From an uncultured cyanobacterium (GTDB lineage Bacteria; Cyanobacteriota; Cyanobacteriia; Cyanobacteriales; CAWUOF01), in NCBI GenBank assembly GCA_963744145.1, contig CAVUSO010000001.1, positions 4,512,001 to 4,576,000 of the forward strand: a DNA stretch of 64,000 nucleotides, given 5' to 3'. A program made the position numbers and the translations under genes. Positions 9,152-28,504 of this stretch are shown one piece after another. How positions within the stretch are numbered: position 1 is the stretch's first letter; each line of letters starts with the position of its first letter. The notes beneath the pieces were generated by a model. That model ran no database searches. It was not told where the DNA came from and saw only the letters and a program-made list of their open reading frames with translations.

Positions 9152-10144
9152 ATGACCGATGATTTAGTTACTAGCGCACAGATTAAAGAAAAAGCTGTTG
9201 AACTGGGATTTCACCAGGTGGGCATAGCAGCAATCTCCCTCCAGTCTGATCCTGGGGATGATGCTGTGAATGTTCCCCTGGCACCTCAGTCTCAAAAGTT
9301 ACGGGATTGGTTGGCTCAAGGTGATCATGCTGATCTGGAATGGATGGCTAATCCTAAGCGTCAGGATGTTCGCTTGTTGATGCCATCGGTGCGATCGCTA
9401 ATTTGTGTCGCTCTGAATTATTACTCATCAGTGTCACGTCCTGAAGATCCACAGTATGCCAAAATTTCCCGTTATGGTTGGGGGAGGGATTATCATCGGG
9501 TTATACATAAAAAATTAAAAGCTTTGACGATCTGGTTAAAAAGTTTTAGCTCGGTTATAGAAGCTAAATATTATGCTGATACTGGACCAATTCTTGACAA
9601 AGCTTGGGCACAAGCAGCGGGAATTGGTTGGATTGCCAAAAATAGTAATTTGATTACTCGTAAATATGGTTCTTGGGTGTTTTTGGGAGAGGTGTTAACT
9701 AATTTGGATTTGACACCTGATCCACCTCATGCAGAACACTGTGGGACTTGTAGTCGTTGCTTGGATGCTTGTCCCACAGGAGCGATTACTCAGCCCTTTG
9801 TGGTTGATGCTAATCGTTGTATTGCTTATCACACGATTGAAAATCGAGGGGAAACTTTACCACCGGCGATCGCTAGTCGGATGGAAGGTTGGGTCGCTGG
9901 TTGTGATATTTGTCAAGATGTTTGTCCCTGGAATCAGCGGTTTGCTCAAGAGACTAATCTAGCTGAATTTCACCCCTATCCTGAGAATATTGCACCAACT
10001 TTAACGGAATTAGCTGAAATCTCCGAATCTGAATGGGAGCGACGTTTTCGAGCATCAGCTTTACGTCGGATTAAACCACAAATGCTTCGTCGTAATGCGA
10101 TCGCTAATTTACATCAGATTCAACCTGAATCCCATCTTGGTTAG
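9152..10144 (+). CDS. queG: Epoxyqueuosine reductase
   Basis: ISRYGWGRDYH, DTGP, CGTCSRCLDACPT and GCDICQDVCPWN motifs. Confidence 0.96.
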   Translation: MTDDLVTSAQIKEKAVELGFHQVGIAAISLQSDPGDDAVNVPLAPQSQKLRDWLAQGDHADLEWMANPKRQDVRLLMPSVRSLICVALNYYSSVSRPEDPQYAKISRYGWGRDYHRVIHKKLKALTIWLKSFSSVIEAKYYADTGPILDKAWAQAAGIGWIAKNSNLITRKYGSWVFLGEVLTNLDLTPDPPHAEHCGTCSRCLDACPTGAITQPFVVDANRCIAYHTIENRGETLPPAIASRMEGWVAGCDICQDVCPWNQRFAQETNLAEFHPYPENIAPTLTELAEISESEWERRFRASALRRIKPQMLRRNAIANLHQIQPESHLG

Positions 10145-11133
10145 GAGTTTTCATCTAATGGTTTTAGGGCTAATTGAGTCGATAAAACCACATACAATCC
10201 CAATACAATGATGATAAATCCGATTAAGTTCACCAAGTTTAATACTTCTCCAAATATGACCCAGGCTAAAAATCCACTTAGCACTGGTTCAAGTAACAGA
10301 ATAACAGCTAATATATAAGATGGTATGTGTTTCAAAGTATACAACATAAAAATTTGACTTAAGCACTGACCAAATACAGCTAAACTGCTACAAGCTAACC
10401 AACTTTTTGATGAAAATAGTAACAGAGGTTCATGGGTCAATAAATTGAGAATACCGGTGATGATTGTTCCCATTCCAAAACACAAAATTAGAATTACTTC
10501 CGTATTTAGATGTTTCTTCAATTGCTCGGCACTCATCAAATAACCAGCCCATGCACCAGCAGAAACCAGAGCGATCAAATCTCCTTGGATTTTGTTTAAA
10601 TTAACATCAAAATCGCCCACACCGATGATAATTGTGCCGCTAATGGCGATCGCTGTACCTAGTAAAAATCTTTGTTCAAACTGCTGATTAAACAATAACC
10701 ATCCTACCACAATAGTGAATAAGGGAGTTAGGTTGTGCATCAGGGCTGAGTTCGCGATCGTGGTTTGAGTGAGCGACCATGTCCACAAAACTGTTGTAGT
10801 ATTAGACATTAATGCAGTCATCACTAATAAAAATATCATCTGATTGTGATCAGCCGATCGCTTAGTAATTTTGGGTAGGGGGATCGGTTCCTTCTGACCA
10901 AAACGGAATATACTTTTTACTCCAGACCACACCATGATCAACATCAGGGAGATCCAATAACGATTGAAGATCAGAGTTCCAGGTTCGATTTCTTGCTCTC
11001 CCCACTTGGTCATCAATGGGACAAAAACTAAACACCCTAGCACTCCGATCAGAGAAAATATCACCAAGATTCTCTGATCGAGTGCTTGTTTCTGGGAAAA
11101 AACCTGCTCTTGTTTAATTGGTATTTCAGTCAT
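10141..11133 (-). CDS. DMT/EamA-family transporter
   Basis: About 10 hydrophobic segments; TPLF, GDLIAL and LLEPV motifs. Confidence 0.88.
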   Translation of the reverse strand: MTEIPIKQEQVFSQKQALDQRILVIFSLIGVLGCLVFVPLMTKWGEQEIEPGTLIFNRYWISLMLIMVWSGVKSIFRFGQKEPIPLPKITKRSADHNQMIFLLVMTALMSNTTTVLWTWSLTQTTIANSALMHNLTPLFTIVVGWLLFNQQFEQRFLLGTAIAISGTIIIGVGDFDVNLNKIQGDLIALVSAGAWAGYLMSAEQLKKHLNTEVILILCFGMGTIITGILNLLTHEPLLLFSSKSWLACSSLAVFGQCLSQIFMLYTLKHIPSYILAVILLLEPVLSGFLAWVIFGEVLNLVNLIGFIIIVLGLYVVLSTQLALKPLDENS

Positions 11134-18751: not shown

Positions 18752-18772
18752 TCTTTAATTAGTCACGGTAGA

Positions 18773-18830
18773 TATACAGTGACTAATTATTTGACGTGAT
18801 GCCAAATTGTTGTCACCGATGAAAACTATT
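18773..18830 (+). mobile_element. CAST tnsB-proximal (right) end, terminal TGT mutated to TAT
   Basis: TATACAGTGACTAATTATTTGACGTGATGCCAAATTGTTGTCACCG resembles V-K CAST ends with tandem TnsB sites. Confidence 0.85.
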
Positions 18831-18885
18831 GATTTCTCTATATTCTAGCTGTTTTCCTTGATTAAAGATCGCTAGCCGTTAGTGA

Positions 18886-19014
18886 CCTGAAGTAATATCT
18901 AACCAAATCTCAACCTCTGATCCTAGCGAGAGCAATCTGATTGTCTCGGAACTTCCAGAGGAGACAAGACCAAAGTTGGAAGTGATTCAAAGTTTGCTGG
19001 AACCATGCGATCGC
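18886..19014 (+). pseudogene. tnsB: tnsB N-terminal remnant
   Basis: Translates SNLIVSELPEETRPKLEVIQSLLEPCDR, matching the V-K TnsB N-terminus (KLEVIQSLLEPCDR). Breaks at HIP1 19007-19014. Confidence 0.88.
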
Positions 19015-19144
19015 CAGGGTGGTGGGGGGTTGAGGTTGAAAGCTTCTGGGAAATGCTGCCGCCAATGGGGGAGGGGATGAAGTGCGAACCGATCGCTGTC
19101 GGACAAAATTTGGAGAATTAGCTGCATATCAAAAATCAGCTTAA
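19007..19144 (+). pseudogene. tniQ: tniQ remnants (two fused fragments)
   Basis: AIARVVG..EMLPPMGEGMKCEPI (cf. TniQ AIASVV..QMLPPAGVGMQHEPIRLC), then DRCRTKFGELAAYQKSA* (TniQ C-terminus). Frameshifted. Confidence 0.85.
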
Positions 19145-19238
19145 TGCAGGGCGGAGGAAGAAGAATGTCCTCATTGTTTTCTGCCTTTTGTGAAGATAGT
19201 CAAACGTCAGAGTTAGTCTGGCGATTGCTTAGTAATAA

Positions 19239-22200
19239 TTAATTATTTGATATTTTTTGAGAGAGCCGCTTATAGACTTCTGAAACTAACCAATCAGATA
19301 CCAACTTTTTAAAATTGATGTCATTCATATAACGAGCGAAAATATCTTCGTTTTGATCTACACGCTCAATAAATAAAGACTCAACAATTTGATTAAATAG
19401 CAAGGTAAATTTATCGGGTGAGTTGACTTGTGCTGCTTGTTGCAATTCTTCGCTATTTGCCGCCGCTTCAACAATTTGATCAAAGAAAAGTTGATCGGCT
19501 TGGTTAAAGTCAGTTCCAAAACGACTATTTAACAGATCAATTAGCTGTGATAGTTTAACAGAACTTTCACGCAAAATGCCTGTTCCTAATGCTTTCTGGC
19601 CATCTAAGGGAGATTTTTCCCCTTTTTCTAAATGAATTGAACCTTCACTAATTTTCTGAAGGCGATAATATTCAAGCTGAATATCACTATCAAAATCGTA
19701 TCGATCTTCATTAGAATGACGCAATAATTTAGGAGATAAATGACGTAAAAAAATATAAAGTTGTTCTAAATCAGAATCTTGATAAGGAATAATTTGACTC
19801 AAAAAATTATAGAGATTGCGAAAAGCTGTTAATTTTCTCCGCCAGAGTTCTGCTTCTTCAATATTCTGCTCGTATAAAGCTCGAAATCTATCAACGGCTG
19901 GATCTAATACAGCATTCATTCCTTGATGATCGGCAGGACTTTGACGCGGTTTGGGCTTAAAATAAATCGCGCAAAACCGCTTAATTTCTTCACTTAAATA
20001 GATTCCTGATGCGTCTAATTGACTTTTTAACTGGTAAAGTTGTGTGGGCTCGGCTTCCTGTCCTAACTCTGCCCCTTCATAAAACTGCTGAAATGCTTCT
20101 CGAATCTCCTCCGGTTTATTGACAAAATCAAGGATAAAGGTATCTTCTTTTTGAGGGTGAGTGCGATTCAGACGAGAGAGGGTTTGCACTGCTTGAATAC
20201 CCGATAAACGCTTATCAACATACATCGTATGTAGCAAAGGTTGATCGAAACCTGTTTGATATTTCTCGGCAACTAACAACACTTGATAGTCATTAGTAGC
20301 AAATTTTTCTGGTAATTCCTTCTCCCTAATTCCCTGATTCATTTCTTCTTCTGTATAGGTTTTATCGGAAATTTTATCGTCAGTAACAATTCCTGAAAAC
20401 GCGACTAACGTTTTGATGGGATAGCCTTTTTCTTTAATATATTTGTCAAAACTTTGTTTGTAACGAACTGCTTCCAGACGAGAACCCGTTACCACCATTG
20501 CTTTTGCCTTACCACCGATTTTATGCCGTGTAAAACTATTAAAATGTTCCACCATAATTTCAGTCTTTTGGGCAATATTATGGGGGTGGAGACGCATAAA
20601 ACGAGCTAAAGCTTTCGCGGCTTTTTTGCGCTCAACATGGGGATCATCTGAACAGTCTTTAATCAGTTTGAAGTAAGCTTTATAGGTGGTGTAGTGCTTC
20701 AATACGTCCATGATGAAGATTTCTTCAATCGCTTGACGCATGGTATAACGATGGAAGGGTTCACCTTTGCGACCAAAGAATTTTAGAGTTTTATGTTTGG
20801 GTGTAGCAGTAAAAGCAAAGAAACTGAGATTATCCTGGTGAGAGCGTTTTGCCATGCTCAGGAACATTTCTTCTAAATGTTCTAATCCTTCTTCTTCTGC
20901 CATTTCACGGGCTTTTTGATGCAATGCTTCACCACCGAGTACCCCTTTCAACTCTGTAGCACTATCCCCAGATTGAGAACTGTGAGCCTCATCAATAATC
21001 ACCGCACAGCAACGAGTTGGTAATAGTCCGCGTCCCTGTTCGTTCCGTTCTTCAGCAAGTTTAAGTAATTGTCGCGTAACAAAAGGAAATTTTTGTAGGG
21101 TTGTAATAATAATAGGAACAGCACTTTCTAGTGCTTGCGCTAACTGCTTAGAATCTTTATCTATTTTTTGAATAACGCCTTGACGGTGTTCAAATTGATA
21201 GATTGTGTCTTGTAATTGTTGATCGAGAATGCGGCGATCGCTAATCACAATTACACTATCAAAAATCCGTTGATTTTGCTCGTTATGCAGGGAAGATAAA
21301 CGATGAGTTAACCAACCAATGGTATTACTTTTGCCACTCCCTGCGGAATGTTCGATTAGATAATTCTGTCCGACTCCTTCGAGTTGGGTCGCATCAATTA
21401 ATTGACGGACGGCTTGTAATTGATGGTAACGGGGAAAGATCATGCTCTCTTTTTTGAATTTTCGCCCTTGATCATCATATTTTTGGTCTATTTGTAAATG
21501 GAGAAACTGGGCTAGGAGTTCTAGTAAACTATCTCGTTGTAAAACTTCTTCCCAAAAATAGGCGGTGCGATAGGTTCGTTCTTCGGGGTCGGGAGGGTTG
21601 CCAGCACCGTTATTGTAACCTTTATTAAAGGGTAAAAAATGGGTGGCTTTTCCGGCAAGTCTGGTAGTCATCCAGACTTCTTCGGTATCAACGGTAAAAT
21701 GAACTAATGTTCGCCGTTTAAACTCAAAAATAACCTCGTGAGGATCACGATCTTGGCGATATTGTTGTTTACCTTGTTCTACGGTTTGTCTGGTTAGGGG
21801 ATTTTTGAGTTCAATGGTTACAAGGGGAATACCATTAAGACTGAGGGTAATATCAAGTTCATTATGATTGCGATCGCTATATTGGAGTTGACGGGTAATT
21901 CCTAATTGATTGGCATTATAGCGGGTTTCTAGGTCAGTATTGAGGCTATGGGCGGCTTTGAAATAGGCTATACGCAGGGTACGTCCATAGCATTTGAAAC
22001 CGTGACGCAGGGTGTGGAGTGATCCGTAGGTATCCATCCATTTACACAGATCGGTAATGACTTGATTTGGGGTGTTTTCTCCTTGTAATGCTGCTAATTT
22101 TGCCCATTCTTTGGGTTGGGTTTGGCGGATAAAGTTGATGGCTATCTCAGGAAAAATGGCATGAGTTTTGTCAAATTTGGTTATGGTTTTAAGATAGCCG

Positions 22201-22265
22201 TGAGCTAGAAGGTAATCTTCTATGACTTGCTCAAAGGCAGTTTCGGTATGGCTTGCTATTGTCAT
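19239..22265 (-). CDS. hsdR: Type I restriction endonuclease subunit R
   Basis: LDITLSLNGIPLVTIELKN nuclease motif, HSAGSGKS, IDEAHSSQ, FTATP and QTGFDQP. Confidence 0.96.
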   Translation of the reverse strand: MTIASHTETAFEQVIEDYLLAHGYLKTITKFDKTHAIFPEIAINFIRQTQPKEWAKLAALQGENTPNQVITDLCKWMDTYGSLHTLRHGFKCYGRTLRIAYFKAAHSLNTDLETRYNANQLGITRQLQYSDRNHNELDITLSLNGIPLVTIELKNPLTRQTVEQGKQQYRQDRDPHEVIFEFKRRTLVHFTVDTEEVWMTTRLAGKATHFLPFNKGYNNGAGNPPDPEERTYRTAYFWEEVLQRDSLLELLAQFLHLQIDQKYDDQGRKFKKESMIFPRYHQLQAVRQLIDATQLEGVGQNYLIEHSAGSGKSNTIGWLTHRLSSLHNEQNQRIFDSVIVISDRRILDQQLQDTIYQFEHRQGVIQKIDKDSKQLAQALESAVPIIITTLQKFPFVTRQLLKLAEERNEQGRGLLPTRCCAVIIDEAHSSQSGDSATELKGVLGGEALHQKAREMAEEEGLEHLEEMFLSMAKRSHQDNLSFFAFTATPKHKTLKFFGRKGEPFHRYTMRQAIEEIFIMDVLKHYTTYKAYFKLIKDCSDDPHVERKKAAKALARFMRLHPHNIAQKTEIMVEHFNSFTRHKIGGKAKAMVVTGSRLEAVRYKQSFDKYIKEKGYPIKTLVAFSGIVTDDKISDKTYTEEEMNQGIREKELPEKFATNDYQVLLVAEKYQTGFDQPLLHTMYVDKRLSGIQAVQTLSRLNRTHPQKEDTFILDFVNKPEEIREAFQQFYEGAELGQEAEPTQLYQLKSQLDASGIYLSEEIKRFCAIYFKPKPRQSPADHQGMNAVLDPAVDRFRALYEQNIEEAELWRRKLTAFRNLYNFLSQIIPYQDSDLEQLYIFLRHLSPKLLRHSNEDRYDFDSDIQLEYYRLQKISEGSIHLEKGEKSPLDGQKALGTGILRESSVKLSQLIDLLNSRFGTDFNQADQLFFDQIVEAAANSEELQQAAQVNSPDKFTLLFNQIVESLFIERVDQNEDIFARYMNDINFKKLVSDWLVSEVYKRLSQKISNN

Positions 22266-22952
22266 TTATTTTTTCCTTTTTTGTGCTTTAATAGCCTCAA
22301 GTCTTGCAATATGTTTTTCTAATGCTTGAATCAAAACAAAACAAAATTCATCTAATTTGTCTCGTTGTTGAGTCTTTAAATCTCTAAGTCGTTTTCGTGC
22401 ATCTTTAAGCGGAAGATTATTTTCCTTCCCAATAGTTCCTTGAATTGCTGCTTTGCGTTTATCTTCAAGCTCACTATAATCAAGACCGAGTTTTGTAATC
22501 GTCATTGCTGCTGCCTGATCTCCAGCCTGATTTTCAATTTGACCTCGTAATTTAAAAATAAAGCGAGATTCACAGCTTTGATTTAAAGGAGAAACAAATA
22601 AATGCTGTTCATCATTCCCAGACCAATGATCTTTTTTATGAGCGCCATAAGGAACTTTATACTTGGTATTAGGTCCAGGATAGCAAGCTACAATATTACT
22701 GTATAAAACAGTTTCACCAGCAGTACAGTGTGTTTGAGGTTTGAGGTGTTCGATATGACATTTTTGTTCATCAATGCTCAAACCTGTGTATGCACATAAC
22801 CAGCCTTGTTCTTCTAGTAAAGAACGAGTCACTGCTTGAACCACATCACTGTTTTTTCGCATCAAATCATAACCAAAATTAATGTCGTTAGAATAACGAG
22901 ATCGCCATTCCTTTAACTGCTCAGGTTCATTCCTCTTCTGAATCCACTTCAT
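22266..22952 (-). CDS. HNH endonuclease, TIGR02646 / PtuB-like
   Basis: LLEEQGWLCAYTG, HIEHLKPQ, YSNIVAC and GAHKKD motifs; overlaps the ATPase gene. Confidence 0.85.
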   Translation of the reverse strand: MKWIQKRNEPEQLKEWRSRYSNDINFGYDLMRKNSDVVQAVTRSLLEEQGWLCAYTGLSIDEQKCHIEHLKPQTHCTAGETVLYSNIVACYPGPNTKYKVPYGAHKKDHWSGNDEQHLFVSPLNQSCESRFIFKLRGQIENQAGDQAAAMTITKLGLDYSELEDKRKAAIQGTIGKENNLPLKDARKRLRDLKTQQRDKLDEFCFVLIQALEKHIARLEAIKAQKRKK

Positions 22953-24255
22953 CTGCTAATGCCTCTAGGTTATTAATGCTGGCTTCAAAACGGGAAGTTT
23001 CATCGTCACTTCCGATCATACGCTTTAAAGTGTCAAGTTGATTTCTGGCTAACTCAAGATTGCCTTCTTCTAGTGAATCTTCTATAGAATTGATTTGATC
23101 TTGAGATTTGCGGTTGCGGGGTTCAGTTTCCATTAAATGTTTAAGAATCCAGCTAGAATCTAACCCAAAGGATTGAAGACCTTCTTGAATTACAATAACT
23201 CGGTTGTCTTCTTTTTGAAGTAAAATCAAACCACTGGGGTGAACTTCTCCAATGATTTGTGGTGAATGGGTAGTTGCAATAAATTGGCAATTTGGGAATG
23301 TCTGAGTCAGTTTTTCTACGATTGTTCGTTGCCAGCGTGGATGCAAATGTAGATCGAGTTCATCAATTAACACAACTGCTTTCCCTTGCTCTAATGGGTT
23401 CTCTAATTTAGGATTTGCTTGCGAAAGTCGTCGTGCCAAGTCAAGAATTAATGCTAAGATACCTCGTTCACCGTCTGAAAACAAACGTATATCAAGCTTC
23501 ATTCCTTCTTTATTTAAAAGTAATGTTGTTGTAGGTTCTCTAATAACCTCAAGTCCAGTACAGGTATCAATAAAGTTGGTTACTGCATTGTTTAATACGC
23601 TTAGATGTTTTTCTGCTAATTTTACACCTTCTTTCACCAGTGCTTCTTGAACTAACAACCACTCGGCAAATTCACGAAGGCGTAGTTCGCGATGAGTTAG
23701 TGCATCAGCAAAAGCAGCAGCTTGATTTCCTGCACTACTCTGTTTGCTAGGAGTCGCCATGTTAGCTAATGAACGACGGGTAGAAAAATAGAGTGCTAGT
23801 GGTTGTTGTTCAGCTGCTTTTAGATACTTTAGAATATCTTTTTGCTTCATGCCTTTAAGCTCTTGTGGAAGATGCTTGTCTAAAATCTCTCGAAGACGTT
23901 TTAGTTCAGGTAAATTACCATCGTCGTTTTCGATAGGTTCACTACTATGTTTAATGTTTTTCTCTCGCCATCTTCTGCTTTCGTACTCTAAACTAACACC
24001 AGCTATATTACATACAAGTGAAGTATAAAGCCAATCACGTTCAACAGTAATATCTTTGACATCAAAGTCAAGACGCTTACTTTTAGAAACGCCAACAATG
24101 GGTAGAAGTTGTGAGAGCATAATCCTTATTGCGTCAAGTACAGTGGATTTACCCACACCATTGATGCCAACAAGTAGGTTCATCCCAGGCTGAAACTCAA
24201 ATTCTGCCTGTTCAAAAGCTCGAAAATTAGTAAGTGTAAGGCGGTTAATCTGCAT
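22927..24255 (-). CDS. ABC/AAA_21-type ATPase, PtuA-like
   Basis: LTNFRAF, Walker A GINGVGKS, signature FSDGE, Walker B LIDELDLHLHPRWQ and TTHSP. Confidence 0.9.
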   Translation of the reverse strand: MQINRLTLTNFRAFEQAEFEFQPGMNLLVGINGVGKSTVLDAIRIMLSQLLPIVGVSKSKRLDFDVKDITVERDWLYTSLVCNIAGVSLEYESRRWREKNIKHSSEPIENDDGNLPELKRLREILDKHLPQELKGMKQKDILKYLKAAEQQPLALYFSTRRSLANMATPSKQSSAGNQAAAFADALTHRELRLREFAEWLLVQEALVKEGVKLAEKHLSVLNNAVTNFIDTCTGLEVIREPTTTLLLNKEGMKLDIRLFSDGERGILALILDLARRLSQANPKLENPLEQGKAVVLIDELDLHLHPRWQRTIVEKLTQTFPNCQFIATTHSPQIIGEVHPSGLILLQKEDNRVIVIQEGLQSFGLDSSWILKHLMETEPRNRKSQDQINSIEDSLEEGNLELARNQLDTLKRMIGSDDETSRFEASINNLEALADEVDSEEE

Positions 24256-24257
24256 AG

Positions 24258-25529
24258 TTACTCCTTGATTTTAAGTTGTCCGGTGACTGCTGCTGTAATT
24301 AATGATGTTCGACGTTCTTCTAAGAGTTTAATTGTTTTGTCTGTAGCTATTTTTAAAGAATCCAATTTGAAAACTTCATTTTTAATATGAGACACGATAG
24401 AATACTGTTCATTCAAGGGAGGCAATATAATTATTAAGCCACTAATAATTTCTGTATTTAAGTTTTCCATTGTCGTCCCAACAGACATCATAGACAAACT
24501 TTTACCCACAAAAGTATTTAACACCAGTAAAACTAAATATTCAGAATCGATAATTTCTAAATTAGGTCGCACTCTCAGACTACCTGAACCACACAACCAT
24601 CCAACTTCTTGTTGAGTTACCACTCCACATCGTCCAATCTCTCCTCGACGGGCAAAAACGATATCGCCACTCTCTAATTTATGAATTGACAAACGTTTTA
24701 CTGTTTCTTGATCTACAGCTACTTGATAGTCTGGAACAATTTTACCATCAACTAAATGTACAGGATTAATAACTGGAAGACCATCATCAACATAGTCTTC
24801 TGCATGGAGTTGTGTTCCAAAAGGGCCTGTTTGAAGTGATTTACTTACTGTTTTAAGTCTTTGAATTGACCAATGCTCAGGAATTTCTTTCATCCACTCA
24901 ACACCAGAATCTCGCATCGGAACATCAGGATTTAACCCACGAGTTACCGCATGGGTAATGAGGGTACGACGTTTTTCATCCAATAATTCTAGTAATCGTT
25001 TTTTGGCTTTAATTAGCTCATCTATTTTGCCTGTTTTTTGATCAAGATAATTTGCGATCGCTTCCTGAATGGAAAGTGAGTGTAAATTAATCGGAAAATC
25101 GGTAAATTTTTTTCGACTGAGTTCAATTTGATTAGTTGCTCCTTCAGAACATAAAACAGTTAGCGTGTCTTGCTGAATACTAAGGTAATAAAAAAGATAT
25201 TTTGGATAAAATCGTTGCAGTGTATCTCGAATAACAGTAACGTGTCCATCTGCAAATGTAGGTTTTTTAGGTTCTATATCAACAATTGCTACTCGGCCAA
25301 GAGTTCCTGTACCTGTAGAGTTAATTAGAATATCATCTTTGTATATCCAAGATGTAATTTTTTCTATTTCATTAGGATCTTGATATTTAGTTTTTAATAA
25401 ATTTAAACCATCAGGTGAAACACAGGCTTGATTAACAACGTGAATATCGGAATATTCAGTATAAACTGGAGCATCACCACGAGAAATAAAATCAGCAATA
25501 TATTTTAGTTTAAGTATTAAATTATTCAC
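24258..25529 (-). CDS. hsdS: Type I R-M specificity subunit
   Basis: Two TRDs separated by the conserved region LITHAVTRGLNPDVPMRDSGVEW; ends LITAAVTGQ. Confidence 0.95.
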   Translation of the reverse strand: MNNLILKLKYIADFISRGDAPVYTEYSDIHVVNQACVSPDGLNLLKTKYQDPNEIEKITSWIYKDDILINSTGTGTLGRVAIVDIEPKKPTFADGHVTVIRDTLQRFYPKYLFYYLSIQQDTLTVLCSEGATNQIELSRKKFTDFPINLHSLSIQEAIANYLDQKTGKIDELIKAKKRLLELLDEKRRTLITHAVTRGLNPDVPMRDSGVEWMKEIPEHWSIQRLKTVSKSLQTGPFGTQLHAEDYVDDGLPVINPVHLVDGKIVPDYQVAVDQETVKRLSIHKLESGDIVFARRGEIGRCGVVTQQEVGWLCGSGSLRVRPNLEIIDSEYLVLLVLNTFVGKSLSMMSVGTTMENLNTEIISGLIIILPPLNEQYSIVSHIKNEVFKLDSLKIATDKTIKLLEERRTSLITAAVTGQLKIKE

Positions 25530-27553
25530 TTTGTCACCTCCTGCAATAACCTAATAATCTCCTCTTCCATCTGTTTAATATCTGCATCAATTTCAGCTAA
25601 TGGACGAGGGGGCGTATATTTGTAAAAATAGCGATTAAAATTAATCTCATAAGCAATTCTAATATTTTCTCCATCTGCCCAAGCATCAGCAACATGAGGT
25701 TCAATTTCTTCAAGAAAATAACGGATAATTTCATCTTGTAAATTAATATTTTCAAAGTCTCTTAACTTCGAGTCTGCTTCATACATCCGTTCTATTTTTT
25801 TACCAGGAACAGGAAACCATCCCCAAACACGAGAGTTAGGTTCACCTGTGACCTTACGTTCCTTCAAAATAACAGGTTTTGCCTCTATTTCTCGTTCTGT
25901 AAATACATCTTTAAATAGCTTTTGTTCAACTTTTTTCCAACGACTACTACGCTGCTTTAATAAATCCGTCATTAACCGATCAAATTCACTCCAATCAGAA
26001 CGAGGTTCGCGTCCCAATTCTCGATCGATTGCTTGAACATCATCTAATAAGTGGGGAACGGCATCCAGAAAACGACTTTTGCGATCGAGATTCATTTGAT
26101 AGAGTAAACGTAGGGGTCGTTCAATGGGAACGCGGTGATAACCAAAATCCTCATTATCAAAAATCTTGCTGGTTTCACTTTCGACAAATTTCCCATATTC
26201 ACGCACCACAATAGCAATATCTTCTTCACCCATATAACGGCGTTTATCTCCTAAACTACGTCGCATCGGTTGCCAACAGTGACGAGCATCAATCAGTTGA
26301 ATTTTGCCTTTACGGTGTTTCTGTTTCCGGTTGGTAACAATCCAAATATAAGTACCAATTCCTGTGTTATAAAACATCTGTTCAGGTAGAGCAATAATCG
26401 CTTCTAACCAATCACTTTCGATAATCCATTTGCGAATTTCACTTTCACCACTCCCAGCACCTCCTGTAAATAAAGGTGAACCATTAAATACAATGGCAAG
26501 ACGAGAACCATTTTTATGATTTTCAGGTTGATAGAGTTCAAATTTCCTAATTTGATGCTGTAAAAACAACAGCGAACCATCATTAACTCTAGGCAACCCT
26601 GCCCCAAAACGTCCGGCAAAACCTAGCTTTTCATGTTCTCGTTTCACTTCCTTTTGCTGTCTCTTCCAGTCCACACCAAAAGGGGGATTTGCTAGAAAAT
26701 ACTCAAAGGTTTCATCAGGGTATTTATCATCAATTAAAGAGTCGCCAAACTGAATAGAACTTTTTTCATTTTCCTTCATTAATAAGTCTGAAGCGGCAAT
26801 GGCATAAGCACGGGGATTAAAATCTTGACCAAAAACCCAGAGTTGTGCTTCTTTATTATTTTCTCGTAAATAATTTTGAGCTTCTGCTAACATTCCCCCC
26901 GTACCACAAGTGGGGTCAAGGAGTTTGCAAATTACGGATTTAGTCAGAATATCATCATCAGGATCGAATAAAATATCAACCATTAAGCGGATGACTTCTC
27001 GTGGTGTAAAGTGGTCCCCTGCGGTTTCGTTGGCAGTTTCATTAAAACGACGAATTAAGTCTTCAAAAACTGACCCCATTGCAATGTTATCTACTCGATC
27101 GGGGTGTAAATCTACATCGCAAAACTTCGAGATGACTAGATAGAGGATGTTCGCCTCATTCATCTTTTCAATTTCTGCGGTAAACTCGAAACGTTCAAAG
27201 ATTTCGCAGATATTTTTTGAGAAACTATTGATATAGTTCACTAAATGTTTATCAATATTATTCGGATCGCCTTTGAGCTTTTCAAAGGTGAGTTCAGAAC
27301 GATTGTAAAAGCGTTGTCCTGCTGCTTTATTAAGCATAGAATCGAGAGCATCATCTTTTAATCGATCTTTGTATTGCTGATATTTAGTTAAAACGTCCTG
27401 TTTAGTGGGTGCAAGTACGCAGTCAAAACGGCGTAACACCGTCATTGGTAGCATAACTCGTTCATATTGCGGAGGTCGATAGGGACCACGTAAAAGATCG
27501 GCTATTTGCCAGATAAAATTAGAAAGTTGGTGATGATCAGCCATTTGTTGCAA
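25526..27553 (-). CDS. hsdM: Type I R-M methyltransferase subunit
   Basis: FIWQIADLLRG, GDHFTPREV, DPTCGTGGM and NPPF motifs. Confidence 0.96.
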   Translation of the reverse strand: MQQMADHHQLSNFIWQIADLLRGPYRPPQYERVMLPMTVLRRFDCVLAPTKQDVLTKYQQYKDRLKDDALDSMLNKAAGQRFYNRSELTFEKLKGDPNNIDKHLVNYINSFSKNICEIFERFEFTAEIEKMNEANILYLVISKFCDVDLHPDRVDNIAMGSVFEDLIRRFNETANETAGDHFTPREVIRLMVDILFDPDDDILTKSVICKLLDPTCGTGGMLAEAQNYLRENNKEAQLWVFGQDFNPRAYAIAASDLLMKENEKSSIQFGDSLIDDKYPDETFEYFLANPPFGVDWKRQQKEVKREHEKLGFAGRFGAGLPRVNDGSLLFLQHQIRKFELYQPENHKNGSRLAIVFNGSPLFTGGAGSGESEIRKWIIESDWLEAIIALPEQMFYNTGIGTYIWIVTNRKQKHRKGKIQLIDARHCWQPMRRSLGDKRRYMGEEDIAIVVREYGKFVESETSKIFDNEDFGYHRVPIERPLRLLYQMNLDRKSRFLDAVPHLLDDVQAIDRELGREPRSDWSEFDRLMTDLLKQRSSRWKKVEQKLFKDVFTEREIEAKPVILKERKVTGEPNSRVWGWFPVPGKKIERMYEADSKLRDFENINLQDEIIRYFLEEIEPHVADAWADGENIRIAYEINFNRYFYKYTPPRPLAEIDADIKQMEEEIIRLLQEVTK

Positions 27554-27675
27554 ATCCTTCGCTCAATTCACCCAAAGTGGGAGTCTCTATCGAATTTTCC
27601 TGTTTTGCTGTAATTGTTTGATTATGATTATTCTGAAAATTAATTCCGTCTGTACTTTGAGTCCTATCTACAAAA

Positions 27676-28134
27676 TTAAACTATGCGATCGCCTGTGGTA
27701 GCAAAACTGCTGAGATTATCGCGTAAGCGTTGATGAATGCGATCGCTCCAAAACGGTACAACAGACAAACCCTGATTAATTGTTTGCAAGGCTAAATCGC
27801 TGTTAAAATCGACTAAACACCGCTGTTTTGAATCCATTAACAACATAAAACGCTTCATTTGCTGTTCTGATAACGATTGCCCAAATAACCATGACTCATT
27901 GGTTTTGAGAATTTCCAGAATTTCCCGACAAACCTCAAAACTCAACCCGATAGAGAGTAAATATTCCATCACCGTCAGCCCCAATAGGTCAGCTACAGAA
28001 TAATAAACATTGCGACCCTTACCAATCGGGTTCACTGTGGGCACAATAACCCCTTTCTCGCGCCAATACTGCAATTGCCGCCGAGAGCATCCGGTAATCT
28101 GTGCCGCTTCTGTACTGGTGTAGAAATTATCCAT
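27676..28134 (-). CDS. cvkR: MerR-type repressor of V-K CAST (CvkR-like)
   Basis: MerR HTH TSTEAAQITGCSRRQLQYWREKG; divergent from the cas12k stub, as in V-K CASTs. Confidence 0.85.
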   Translation of the reverse strand: MDNFYTSTEAAQITGCSRRQLQYWREKGVIVPTVNPIGKGRNVYYSVADLLGLTVMEYLLSIGLSFEVCREILEILKTNESWLFGQSLSEQQMKRFMLLMDSKQRCLVDFNSDLALQTINQGLSVVPFWSDRIHQRLRDNLSSFATTGDRIV

Positions 28135-28215
28135 AGATTTTTATAATACTTAACTTCGTGCAAAATAATTTGAGAATTTTAAACACATAGTGTGTTCTTG
28201 TGCTACTATATTTTG
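28135..28215. promoter_or_regulatory. Divergent cvkR/cas12k promoter with a CvkR-box-like palindrome
   Basis: AACACA-TAG-TGTGTT at 28182-28196 is one mismatch from AnnACATnATGTnnT. -10-like hexamers TATTAT (minus) and TACTAT (plus) lie 6-8 bp before the respective ATGs. Confidence 0.7.
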
Positions 28216-28266
28216 ATGAGTCAAATAACTATTCAATGCCGTTTAATTGCCAAAGAATCCAGCCAA
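28216..28266 (+). pseudogene. cas12k: cas12k 5' stub
   Basis: MSQITIQCRLIAKESS matches the conserved Cas12k N-terminus. The rest of the gene and the tracrRNA are deleted; the frame runs through the repeat to a TAA at 28341. Confidence 0.85.
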
Positions 28267-28340
28267 GTTTCAACCACCATTTCAGCTAGGGGTGGTTTAA
28301 AAGTCTATAAGGATATGGGCGTAGTCGTCACTGGCAACTA
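28267..28340 (+). CRISPR. Single type V-K CRISPR repeat (28267-28303) plus putative spacer
   Basis: 37-nt GTTTCAACCACCATTTCAGCTAGGGGTGGTTTAAAAG resembles V-K repeats (GTTTCAAC...GGTGGGTTGAAAG). Only one copy, so the spacer end is undefined. Confidence 0.75.
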
Positions 28341-28348
28341 AACGAGAA

Positions 28349-28425
28349 TAATTTGTCCCAAAGACATTTAACTTGTCTCGACGACAGTAATTTGTCCCCG
28401 ACGACATTTAATTAGTCACTGTACA
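28349..28425 (-). mobile_element. CAST tRNA-proximal (left) end with 3-4 tandem TnsB-binding repeats
   Basis: TGTACAGTGACTAATTAAATGTCGTCGGGGACAAATTACTGTCGTCGAGACAAGTTAAATGTCTTTGGGACAAATTA. Confidence 0.9.
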
Positions 28426-28433
28426 GAACCTAA

Positions 28434-28504
28434 AGCGGGCAGCGGGAATCGAACCCGCATCTTTAGCTTGGAAGGCTAAGGTTTTACCACTAAACCATGC
28501 CCGC
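28434..28504 (-). tRNA. trnG: tRNA-Gly (TCC)
   Basis: GCGGGCATGGTTTAGTGGTAAAACCTTAGCCTTCCAAGCTAAAGATGCGGGTTCGATTCCCGCTGCCCGCT folds as a cloverleaf with anticodon TCC. Confidence 0.97.

Follow-up and report, generated by a model that had tools for sequence, protein, structure and literature searches.

Thirty years on, the HIP1 octamer, GCGATCGC, still lacks an agreed function, and very few cases tie it to deletions. HIP1-promoted excision was reportedly described by Robinson et al. in 1997. Short direct repeats are a general source of deletions in bacteria, either by replication slippage or by microhomology joining, and deletion between such repeats is said to have been treated by Bzymek and Lovett in 2001. 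For the smtB/metallothionein locus of Synechococcus PCC 6301, PMC13756078 describes a 352-bp smtB excision flanked by HIP1, which goes back to Gupta et al. 1993. Type V-K CASTs, as far as the accessible text of two reports goes, comprise Cas12k, TnsB, TnsC, TniQ and CvkR (PMC9938897; bioRxiv 10.1101/2021.02.06.429022); in the excerpted text of the former, CvkR is a MerR-type repressor of type V-K CASTs, and in that of the latter, a tRNA gene flanks Cas12k elements at the end farther from the transposase genes. Among the matches listed in the literature on HIP1 and deletion, there was no title about CASTs.

The window, by which we mean the whole 64 kb stretch of DNA that was analysed, carries at 18773-28425 the remnant of a type V-K CAST, which adjoins a tRNA-Gly gene in a cyanobacterial chromosome (G000:C1). 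Its features are collected in Table 1. Both ends are recognisable, the left one (LE) from 18773 and the right one (RE) up to 28425, with the terminal TGTACA and with end repeats like those of relatives, and the tRNA-Gly gene flanks the end that lies away from the transposase genes. The coding leftovers amount to ~43 codons of tnsB, two tniQ pieces (~42 codons), ~16 codons of cas12k and one CRISPR repeat. Nothing of tnsC is left in 18773-28425, so that tnsB and tniQ fragments are all that represents the tnsB/tnsC/tniQ gene set, while ~16 codons and a single repeat stand in place of cas12k, tracrRNA and an array with a tRNA-targeting guide. Over the window locus, Rfam reported the tRNA only, and no stretch of at least 10 nt inside 28131-28425 matches the tRNA region as a guide would. 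The element is a remnant of a type V-K CAST member, not a working member, and it is incapable of moving by itself. Its cargo (a type I restriction-modification system with an embedded ATPase pair) and its MerR regulator remain intact; judged by its position, the MerR gene may be CvkR-like. A second CAST copy in the same genome, which could have served as parent, was found neither by blastn nor by tblastn; these genome searches gave one weak TnsB-like match elsewhere (C1:4464500, E=0.15).

An undeleted form of the element is present in a public sequencing run (X2), on a 24,128-nt contig which is 95–99% alike. This contig fits the window over 18775-18886 and then has 161 letters that are missing from the window; it fits again over 18887-19014, followed by 2645 missing letters before the match resumes at 19026. 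The next two stretches, 19026-19093 (fitted also by X3 and X5) and 19090-19577, share 4 letters of the window and lie 162 apart on the contig, corresponding to 166 missing letters. The contig is unbroken across 19090-19577, that is, across the tniQ end, the fragment of a second tniQ and the 3′ end of hsdR. In another run, X1, the contigs are at least 99% alike but none of them spans the joints. X2 and X5 both fit the window from 18775, and their flanks before that position are unrelated to it. The ~20-nt inverted copy at 18752-18772, which forms a palindrome with the LE terminus, is absent from these two flanks and may be a scar, perhaps the last, of an older neighbouring element. A genome search at the family level gave no match (only 2 genomes in the family), and a lineage-specific degenerate pattern, applied to genome and metagenome contigs, retrieved decayed or partial members (G096, G239, L053–L055) and no full intact operon of the lineage. 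Within the families of G096 and G078, no relative closer than G078 (83% TniQ identity) was found.

Table 1. Features of the CAST remnant and its borders (positions in the window; J0, J1, J2 and J4 are deletion joints)
Positions	Strand	Feature	Evidence
18752..18772	.	Short inverted copy of transposon end, just outside left end	34-nt self inverted match, 88%
18773..18886	+	Left end (LE) and leader, up to joint J0 at 18886/18887	Matches in many relatives
18887..19014	+	tnsB 5′ remnant, ~43 codons, start codon lost, ends ..LEPCDR	X2 fits 18887-19014
19007..19014	.	HIP1 octamer GCGATCGC, native to tnsB Cys-Asp-Arg codons; left edge of J1	
19015..19017	+	CAG at J1, fits neither parent	tnsB relatives: Val codon next; tniQ relatives: GGA
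19018..19093	+	tniQ piece 1, relatives' codons ~71-95, one extra G in run 19024-19029 (frameshift)	71/76 vs L053, L054
19090..19096	.	J2: CGAT (19090-19093) common to both parents, then CGC from right parent's HIP1	Alignment to L003; X2, X3 overlap
19090..19144	+	tniQ piece 2, last ~17 codons and stop TAA 19142-19144	96% identical to L003
19145..19216	+	Fragment of second, different tniQ C-terminus (..ECPHCFLPF..KRQS, stop)	DNA matches L012, L023, L024, L030, L035, L044
19239..27553	-	Type I restriction-modification cargo (hsdR, hsdS, hsdM), with AAA_15 ATPase and 228-aa ORF between	Pfam scan
27676..28134	-	MerR-family regulator gene, divergent from cas12k start	Pfam MerR_1, 2.6e-16
28216..28266	+	cas12k 5′ remnant (~16 codons) and joint J4	84.6% DNA match to L052, up to 28262
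28267..28303	+	Single CRISPR-repeat-like unit, array leftover	Similar unit in L054 at 6437
28368..28425	+	Right end (RE), repeats like relatives' transposon ends, terminal TGTACA	Matches to many relatives' ends
28434..28504	-	tRNA-Gly (TCC), attachment-site gene, 8 nt from RE	ARAGORN and Rfam

A preliminary description, made from the window alone, had attributed the loss of most of tnsB, all of tnsC and parts of tniQ to recombination between HIP1 sites, citing GCGATCGC at 19007-19014 and CGATCGC at 19090-19096. Both words are where it placed them, and the losses are real: one deletion (joint J1, from 19014 to 19018-19026) cost the element its tnsC, the greater part of tnsB and tniQ up to codon ~70, and a second took 166 nt of tniQ (J2). 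Two further joints had been overlooked, namely a 161-nt deletion at the tnsB start (J0, 18886/18887) and the cas12k/repeat joint near 28263-28267 (J4). The proposed route of the losses is another matter. Alignment to intact relatives, suggested at the time as a check for HIP1 at both parental breakpoints, reveals the octamer on one side only at each of the two joints.

The left side of J1 agrees with what had been reported. Frame 0 reads ..LEVIQSLLEPCDR up to 19014, and the TnsB similarity, said to end within the octamer, stops at its last base, where the fit of X2 also stops. The tnsB DNA matches end at 19014 in 12 of 14 relatives and at 19016 in the other two (L020, L022). The octamer itself belongs to tnsB, being carried at the same Cys-Asp-Arg codons by 13 of 14 tnsB relatives, with 7 of its 8 letters in the fourteenth; X5 likewise has 7/8 letters at this site. 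Beyond it, the closest TnsB proteins (P0001-P0003; 93, 86 and 83% identical over the remnant) continue with VTYGERL, and the loose end of X5 past the tnsB site continues in the same manner with Val-Thr-Tyr. The CAG that follows the octamer can be dismissed as the next tnsB codon (Gln), since both the closest proteins and X5 go on with Val.

On the tniQ side, the claim that similarity begins inside the same octamer is not borne out. Compared with the closest tniQ DNA (L053, L054), the window has 71/76 identities over 19018-19093 against 5/11 over 19007-19017. The six lineage proteins all have ALA or AMA followed by E at this site (AIA in 0/6), G078 reads Ala-Met-Ala, and AIA or HIP1 occurs in 0/3 lineage DNA copies; the partner site of J1 reads GCTTTGGC and then GGAGGTGGTA in L053 and L054 and in the loose ends of X3 and X5. 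As for X2, it has 0 letters fitting both sides of J1, and from this together with the placement of J1 (as in X3 and X5) we infer that X2 is without HIP1 at its tniQ parental site. In the family as a whole, the octamer occupies the tniQ site in 2 of 32 distinct loci (L032, L068; 38 rows less 6 fetched twice from the same place), with 7/8 letters in L038; of 120 proteins retrieved, 110 had a locatable motif, and 6 of these read AIA there. The 'AIA' reading in the window is GCGATCGC read in the next frame. J1 is, to judge from the aligned relatives, flush with the 3′ edge of the HIP1 native to tnsB, joined to a HIP1-less tniQ site. Codons ~11-14 of tniQ (Phe-Ala-Ile-Ala-Pro) carry a conserved HIP1 in L053, L054 and L056; a two-step history of J1 via this N-terminal site was considered and dropped, as it demands three events and offers only a 4-nt match. 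A separate truncation of a tniQ gene of the same lineage is found in L052 (G096, Coleofasciculus sp. H7-2, ~9769-10400), where the 5′-truncated gene lies ~90 nt downstream of a cas2-like ORF and its truncation point falls within ~10 nt of the tniQ break of J1 in the window.

The second jump that had been noted within tniQ, from EPI to DRC, is a true internal deletion, its two sides overlapping on CGAT at 19090-19093. The missing segment measures 166 nt in X2 and X3 and 190 nt in G239 (L003/L055), where it includes a 24-nt in-frame insert; it is likewise kept in G096 (L002). The parental word on the left is CCGATT or CCAATT wherever Pro-Ile is kept. Every locus that retains the Ile (33/34) encodes it by ATT, and HIP1 is found at Glu-Pro-Ile in 0 of 34 distinct loci; the loose end of X5 behind 19093 agrees with this reading. 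The right parent (Cys-Asp-Arg-Cys) has HIP1 in L002 and L003, 7/8 letters in L057 and none in L054 and L056, and the scar keeps 7 of the 8 HIP1 letters. J2 is, as the alignments place it, a 166-nt deletion across a 4-nt CGAT microhomology, the right repeat being the core of HIP1. As in other deletions between short direct repeats, the word stands at both parental ends and one copy is kept. Downstream, the C-terminus encoded by tniQ piece 2 is the same as in P0006, P0008 and P0082. The 24-nt insert (VGDSRGVS) is near-palindromic and sits between Cys and Asp/His-Arg-His of the tniQ zinc-finger region; it is carried by L002, L003/L055, L054 and P0006 and is absent in X2, X3, G078, P0007 and P0008.

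Directly behind the resident tniQ stop lie 23 codons (19145-19216) from a different tniQ lineage, like that of L044, L035 and L012. As the intact element of X2 is arranged likewise, this second fragment is older than the decay of the present copy, and a working CAST therefore carries a relic of the tniQ of another CAST. For the same reason, a model in which the arrangement is a lesion of this copy, produced by an old and a new element in tandem, was discarded. Within the cargo gene hsdR, the likeness of X2 and X3 to the window ends at the same base, 19577, with identical loose ends; this is a mosaic break shared by the two, and HIP1 is absent there. Between hsdS and hsdR (22266-24255) sit an AAA_15/AAA_21 ATPase gene and the 228-aa ORF, which has no Pfam match. 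At the right-hand end of the element, the L052 match covers the promoter and start of a homologue taken to be cas12k. In L054 (6420-6460), a HIP1 octamer lies 1 nt upstream of the CRISPR-repeat-like unit similar to that of the window.

HIP1 is absent at the three other joints of the element, i.e. at J0, at J4 and at the older joint between the two tniQ lineages (tniQ-A/tniQ-B). The letters shared by both sides number 0–1 nt at J0 and J4 and 0–2 nt at J1, and J0 and J4, and probably J1, therefore do not count as strictly repeat-mediated. Of the 12 joints mapped in decayed CASTs from other genomes, none has HIP1, one of its 7-mers or CGATCG within 25 nt (L034, in tnsB; L037, in tnsC; two in L042; L053 and L054; L052; L055; L057; L058; L059/L060; and L060, where an internal 39-nt deletion runs across TCGG); the loci holding these joints contain 53 HIP1 copies in 81,001 nt. 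The octamer is abundant in general, with 59 copies of GCGATCGC in the window against 0.28 expected and 7811 in the 7,702,779 nt of the genome (1 per 986 nt). The 16 intact CAST operons have the same density as the genome (52 in 49,352 nt, 1 per 949 nt). CAST genes are thus as HIP1-adapted as host genes, and they carry the octamer at fixed codons, as at tnsB Cys-Asp-Arg.

When random deletions were simulated in these 16 operons, HIP1 stood at the joint with p=0.0030; counting its 7-mers as well raised this to p=0.0086. By the binomial from the simulated p, two HIP1-touching joints among the 5 of this element have a probability of ~7e-4, and two among 17, with those of the relatives included, ~9e-3, figures that come from a small sample and from a case chosen for its coincidence. 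HIP1-touching joints thus exceed what random breakpoints would give, which makes a neutral bystander role of HIP1 at these joints improbable. To this extent the earlier emphasis on HIP1 at both scars is justified; it fails in that only one of the two parents of each joint carries the octamer.

The reading we favour, and consider probable, is ordinary illegitimate deletion with little or no homology, to which HIP1 contributes on one side, as a frequent GC-rich word. Where the joints lie and what the parents read is observed directly, and from this we infer how the joining proceeded, that is, its enzymology: replication slippage or microhomology-type joining. A type V-K CAST would have landed beside tRNA-Gly and would later have been immobilised by at least 4 separate illegitimate deletions. 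These would have removed the 161 nt at the tnsB start (J0), about 2.65 kb between tnsB codon ~43 and tniQ codon ~70 (J1), the 166 nt inside tniQ by use of a CGAT repeat whose right copy is the HIP1 core (J2), and the stretch from cas12k codon ~16 to the last CRISPR repeat (J4), while a 1-nt frameshift would have added to the decay. As HIP1 stands on only one side of each deletion in the intact relatives, J1 and J2 point to short-homology deletion and not to palindrome-to-palindrome recombination. The main rival holds that HIP1 is a preferred break point, or a start point of repair or recombination, and one-sided joints are just what it would lead one to expect. J1 and J2 each have HIP1 on exactly one parent, J1 lying at the edge of the octamer and J2 within its core, and the excess over random breakpoints (~7e-4 for 2/5, ~9e-3 for 2/17) speaks for it as well. 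However, neither HIP1 nor its core lies near 15 of the 17 joints, the 4-nt microhomology explains J2 equally well, and a nuclease of CGATCG or GCGATCGC type, cutting inside HIP1, would have broken up the octamer, which is intact at J1. With a small sample and a case picked for its coincidence, we regard a preferred break point as unlikely, if still the strongest of the alternatives.

Exchange between two HIP1 copies, as the preliminary description had it, conflicts with the tniQ partner of J1, which reads GCTTTGGC in X3, X5, L053 and L054, and with the left parent of J2, where the octamer is found in 0/34 loci. The smtB-type pattern of Gupta et al. 1993, as described in PMC13756078, with GCGATCGC at both parental ends, is seen at neither J1 nor J2, and neither scar consists of one octamer free of extra letters, J1 having 3 odd letters besides and J2 only 7/8 letters. 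J1 might be rescued for such an exchange if its direct ancestor had gained GCGATCGC at the tniQ Ala-x-Ala codons (AIA-R). The tniQ site can hold HIP1 (L032, L068; 7/8 letters in L038), the in-frame joint gives AIARVV in register with the family motif A[LI]A-x-VV, and two-sided signatures exist both elsewhere in this genome and, as PMC13756078 describes it, in the case of Gupta 1993. Against this, 6 differences in 11 nt would be required relative to relatives that are 93% identical over the next 76 nt, and three of the six (CAG) are unneeded for making HIP1; X2, which is 95–99% alike, has 0 letters fitting both sides, and AIA or HIP1 occurs in 0/6 lineage proteins and 0/3 lineage DNA copies. 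We consider such a gain in the ancestor quite improbable. Less credible again, to the point of being highly improbable, is a dedicated role of HIP1 in disarming mobile DNA through deletions inside transposons, which had also been put forward. That two scars of the element touch HIP1 is its sole support. The three remaining joints of the element and 12/12 joints in decayed relatives are without HIP1, the octamer is not enriched in CAST operons, which have the density of the genome, and HIP1-bounded length differences in this genome sit in ordinary repeated regions; the title of Robinson et al. 1997, taken by itself, also argues against a cyanobacterial machinery.

Those length differences came from a self-comparison of paralogous copies across the genome, which yielded 24 chained pairs with one copy short by at least 20 nt, which by eye collapse to roughly 14 loci, among them several tandem protein repeats and an IS insertion. 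In 2 of the ~14 loci, a proportion that is rough for this reason, HIP1 stands at both ends of the extra segment in the long form and a single HIP1 remains in the short form. One is C1 54617/58701 versus 61692, within G000:C1:52675-62554 (L077), a cluster of paralogous gene modules in which similarity blocks start and stop exactly at HIP1 (54617, 58701, 61692). The other is a 485-nt tandem unit with HIP1 at 181808, 182293 and 182778 and with two copies that are 99.2% identical. Tandem arrays of a 485–488-nt unit, with start, borders and end on HIP1, occur at G000:C1:181808-182785 (L076) and at C1:5579255-5580251. The HIP1-bounded differences fall in ordinary repeated regions of the genome, and HIP1-to-HIP1 exchange seems to occur in this genome, though not at the CAST joints.

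A HIP1-flanked deletion has been known since 1993, and this locus is an ordinary new instance. It is nevertheless a well-resolved natural case, thanks to a nearly identical intact parent in public data, and HIP1 on one parent only at the scars argues against simple repeat-to-repeat recombination here. Together, the CAST joints and the two clean two-sided length differences suggest a modest role for HIP1, as a source of short homology or as a break-prone site; if the one-sided break site were true, HIP1 would shape which genes cyanobacteria lose. For CAST biology, the locus documents immobilisation with defence cargo and regulator kept, an expected and unsurprising outcome.

Compared with the smtB case, the CAST scars resemble it in being cyanobacterial deletion scars that carry GCGATCGC, with illegitimate recombination as the proposed cause. 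They differ in that smtB has HIP1 on both sides, whereas the CAST joints have it on one parent only, J1 with 0–2 nt shared and 3 odd letters and J2 with CGAT. With deletions between short repeats, J2 has in common that one copy of a 4-nt repeat is kept, as is also the case with TCGG in the relative L060; J0 and J4, and probably J1, with 0–2 nt of shared letters, are unlike them. Set against type V-K CASTs, the element is without tnsC, without working tnsB, tniQ, cas12k, tracrRNA and array, and without a tRNA-matching guide that could be found; it nevertheless retains both ends, the tnsB and tniQ remnants, the start of cas12k, a repeat unit, the divergent MerR gene, the defence cargo and the tRNA at its distal end, all of which it shares with that group.
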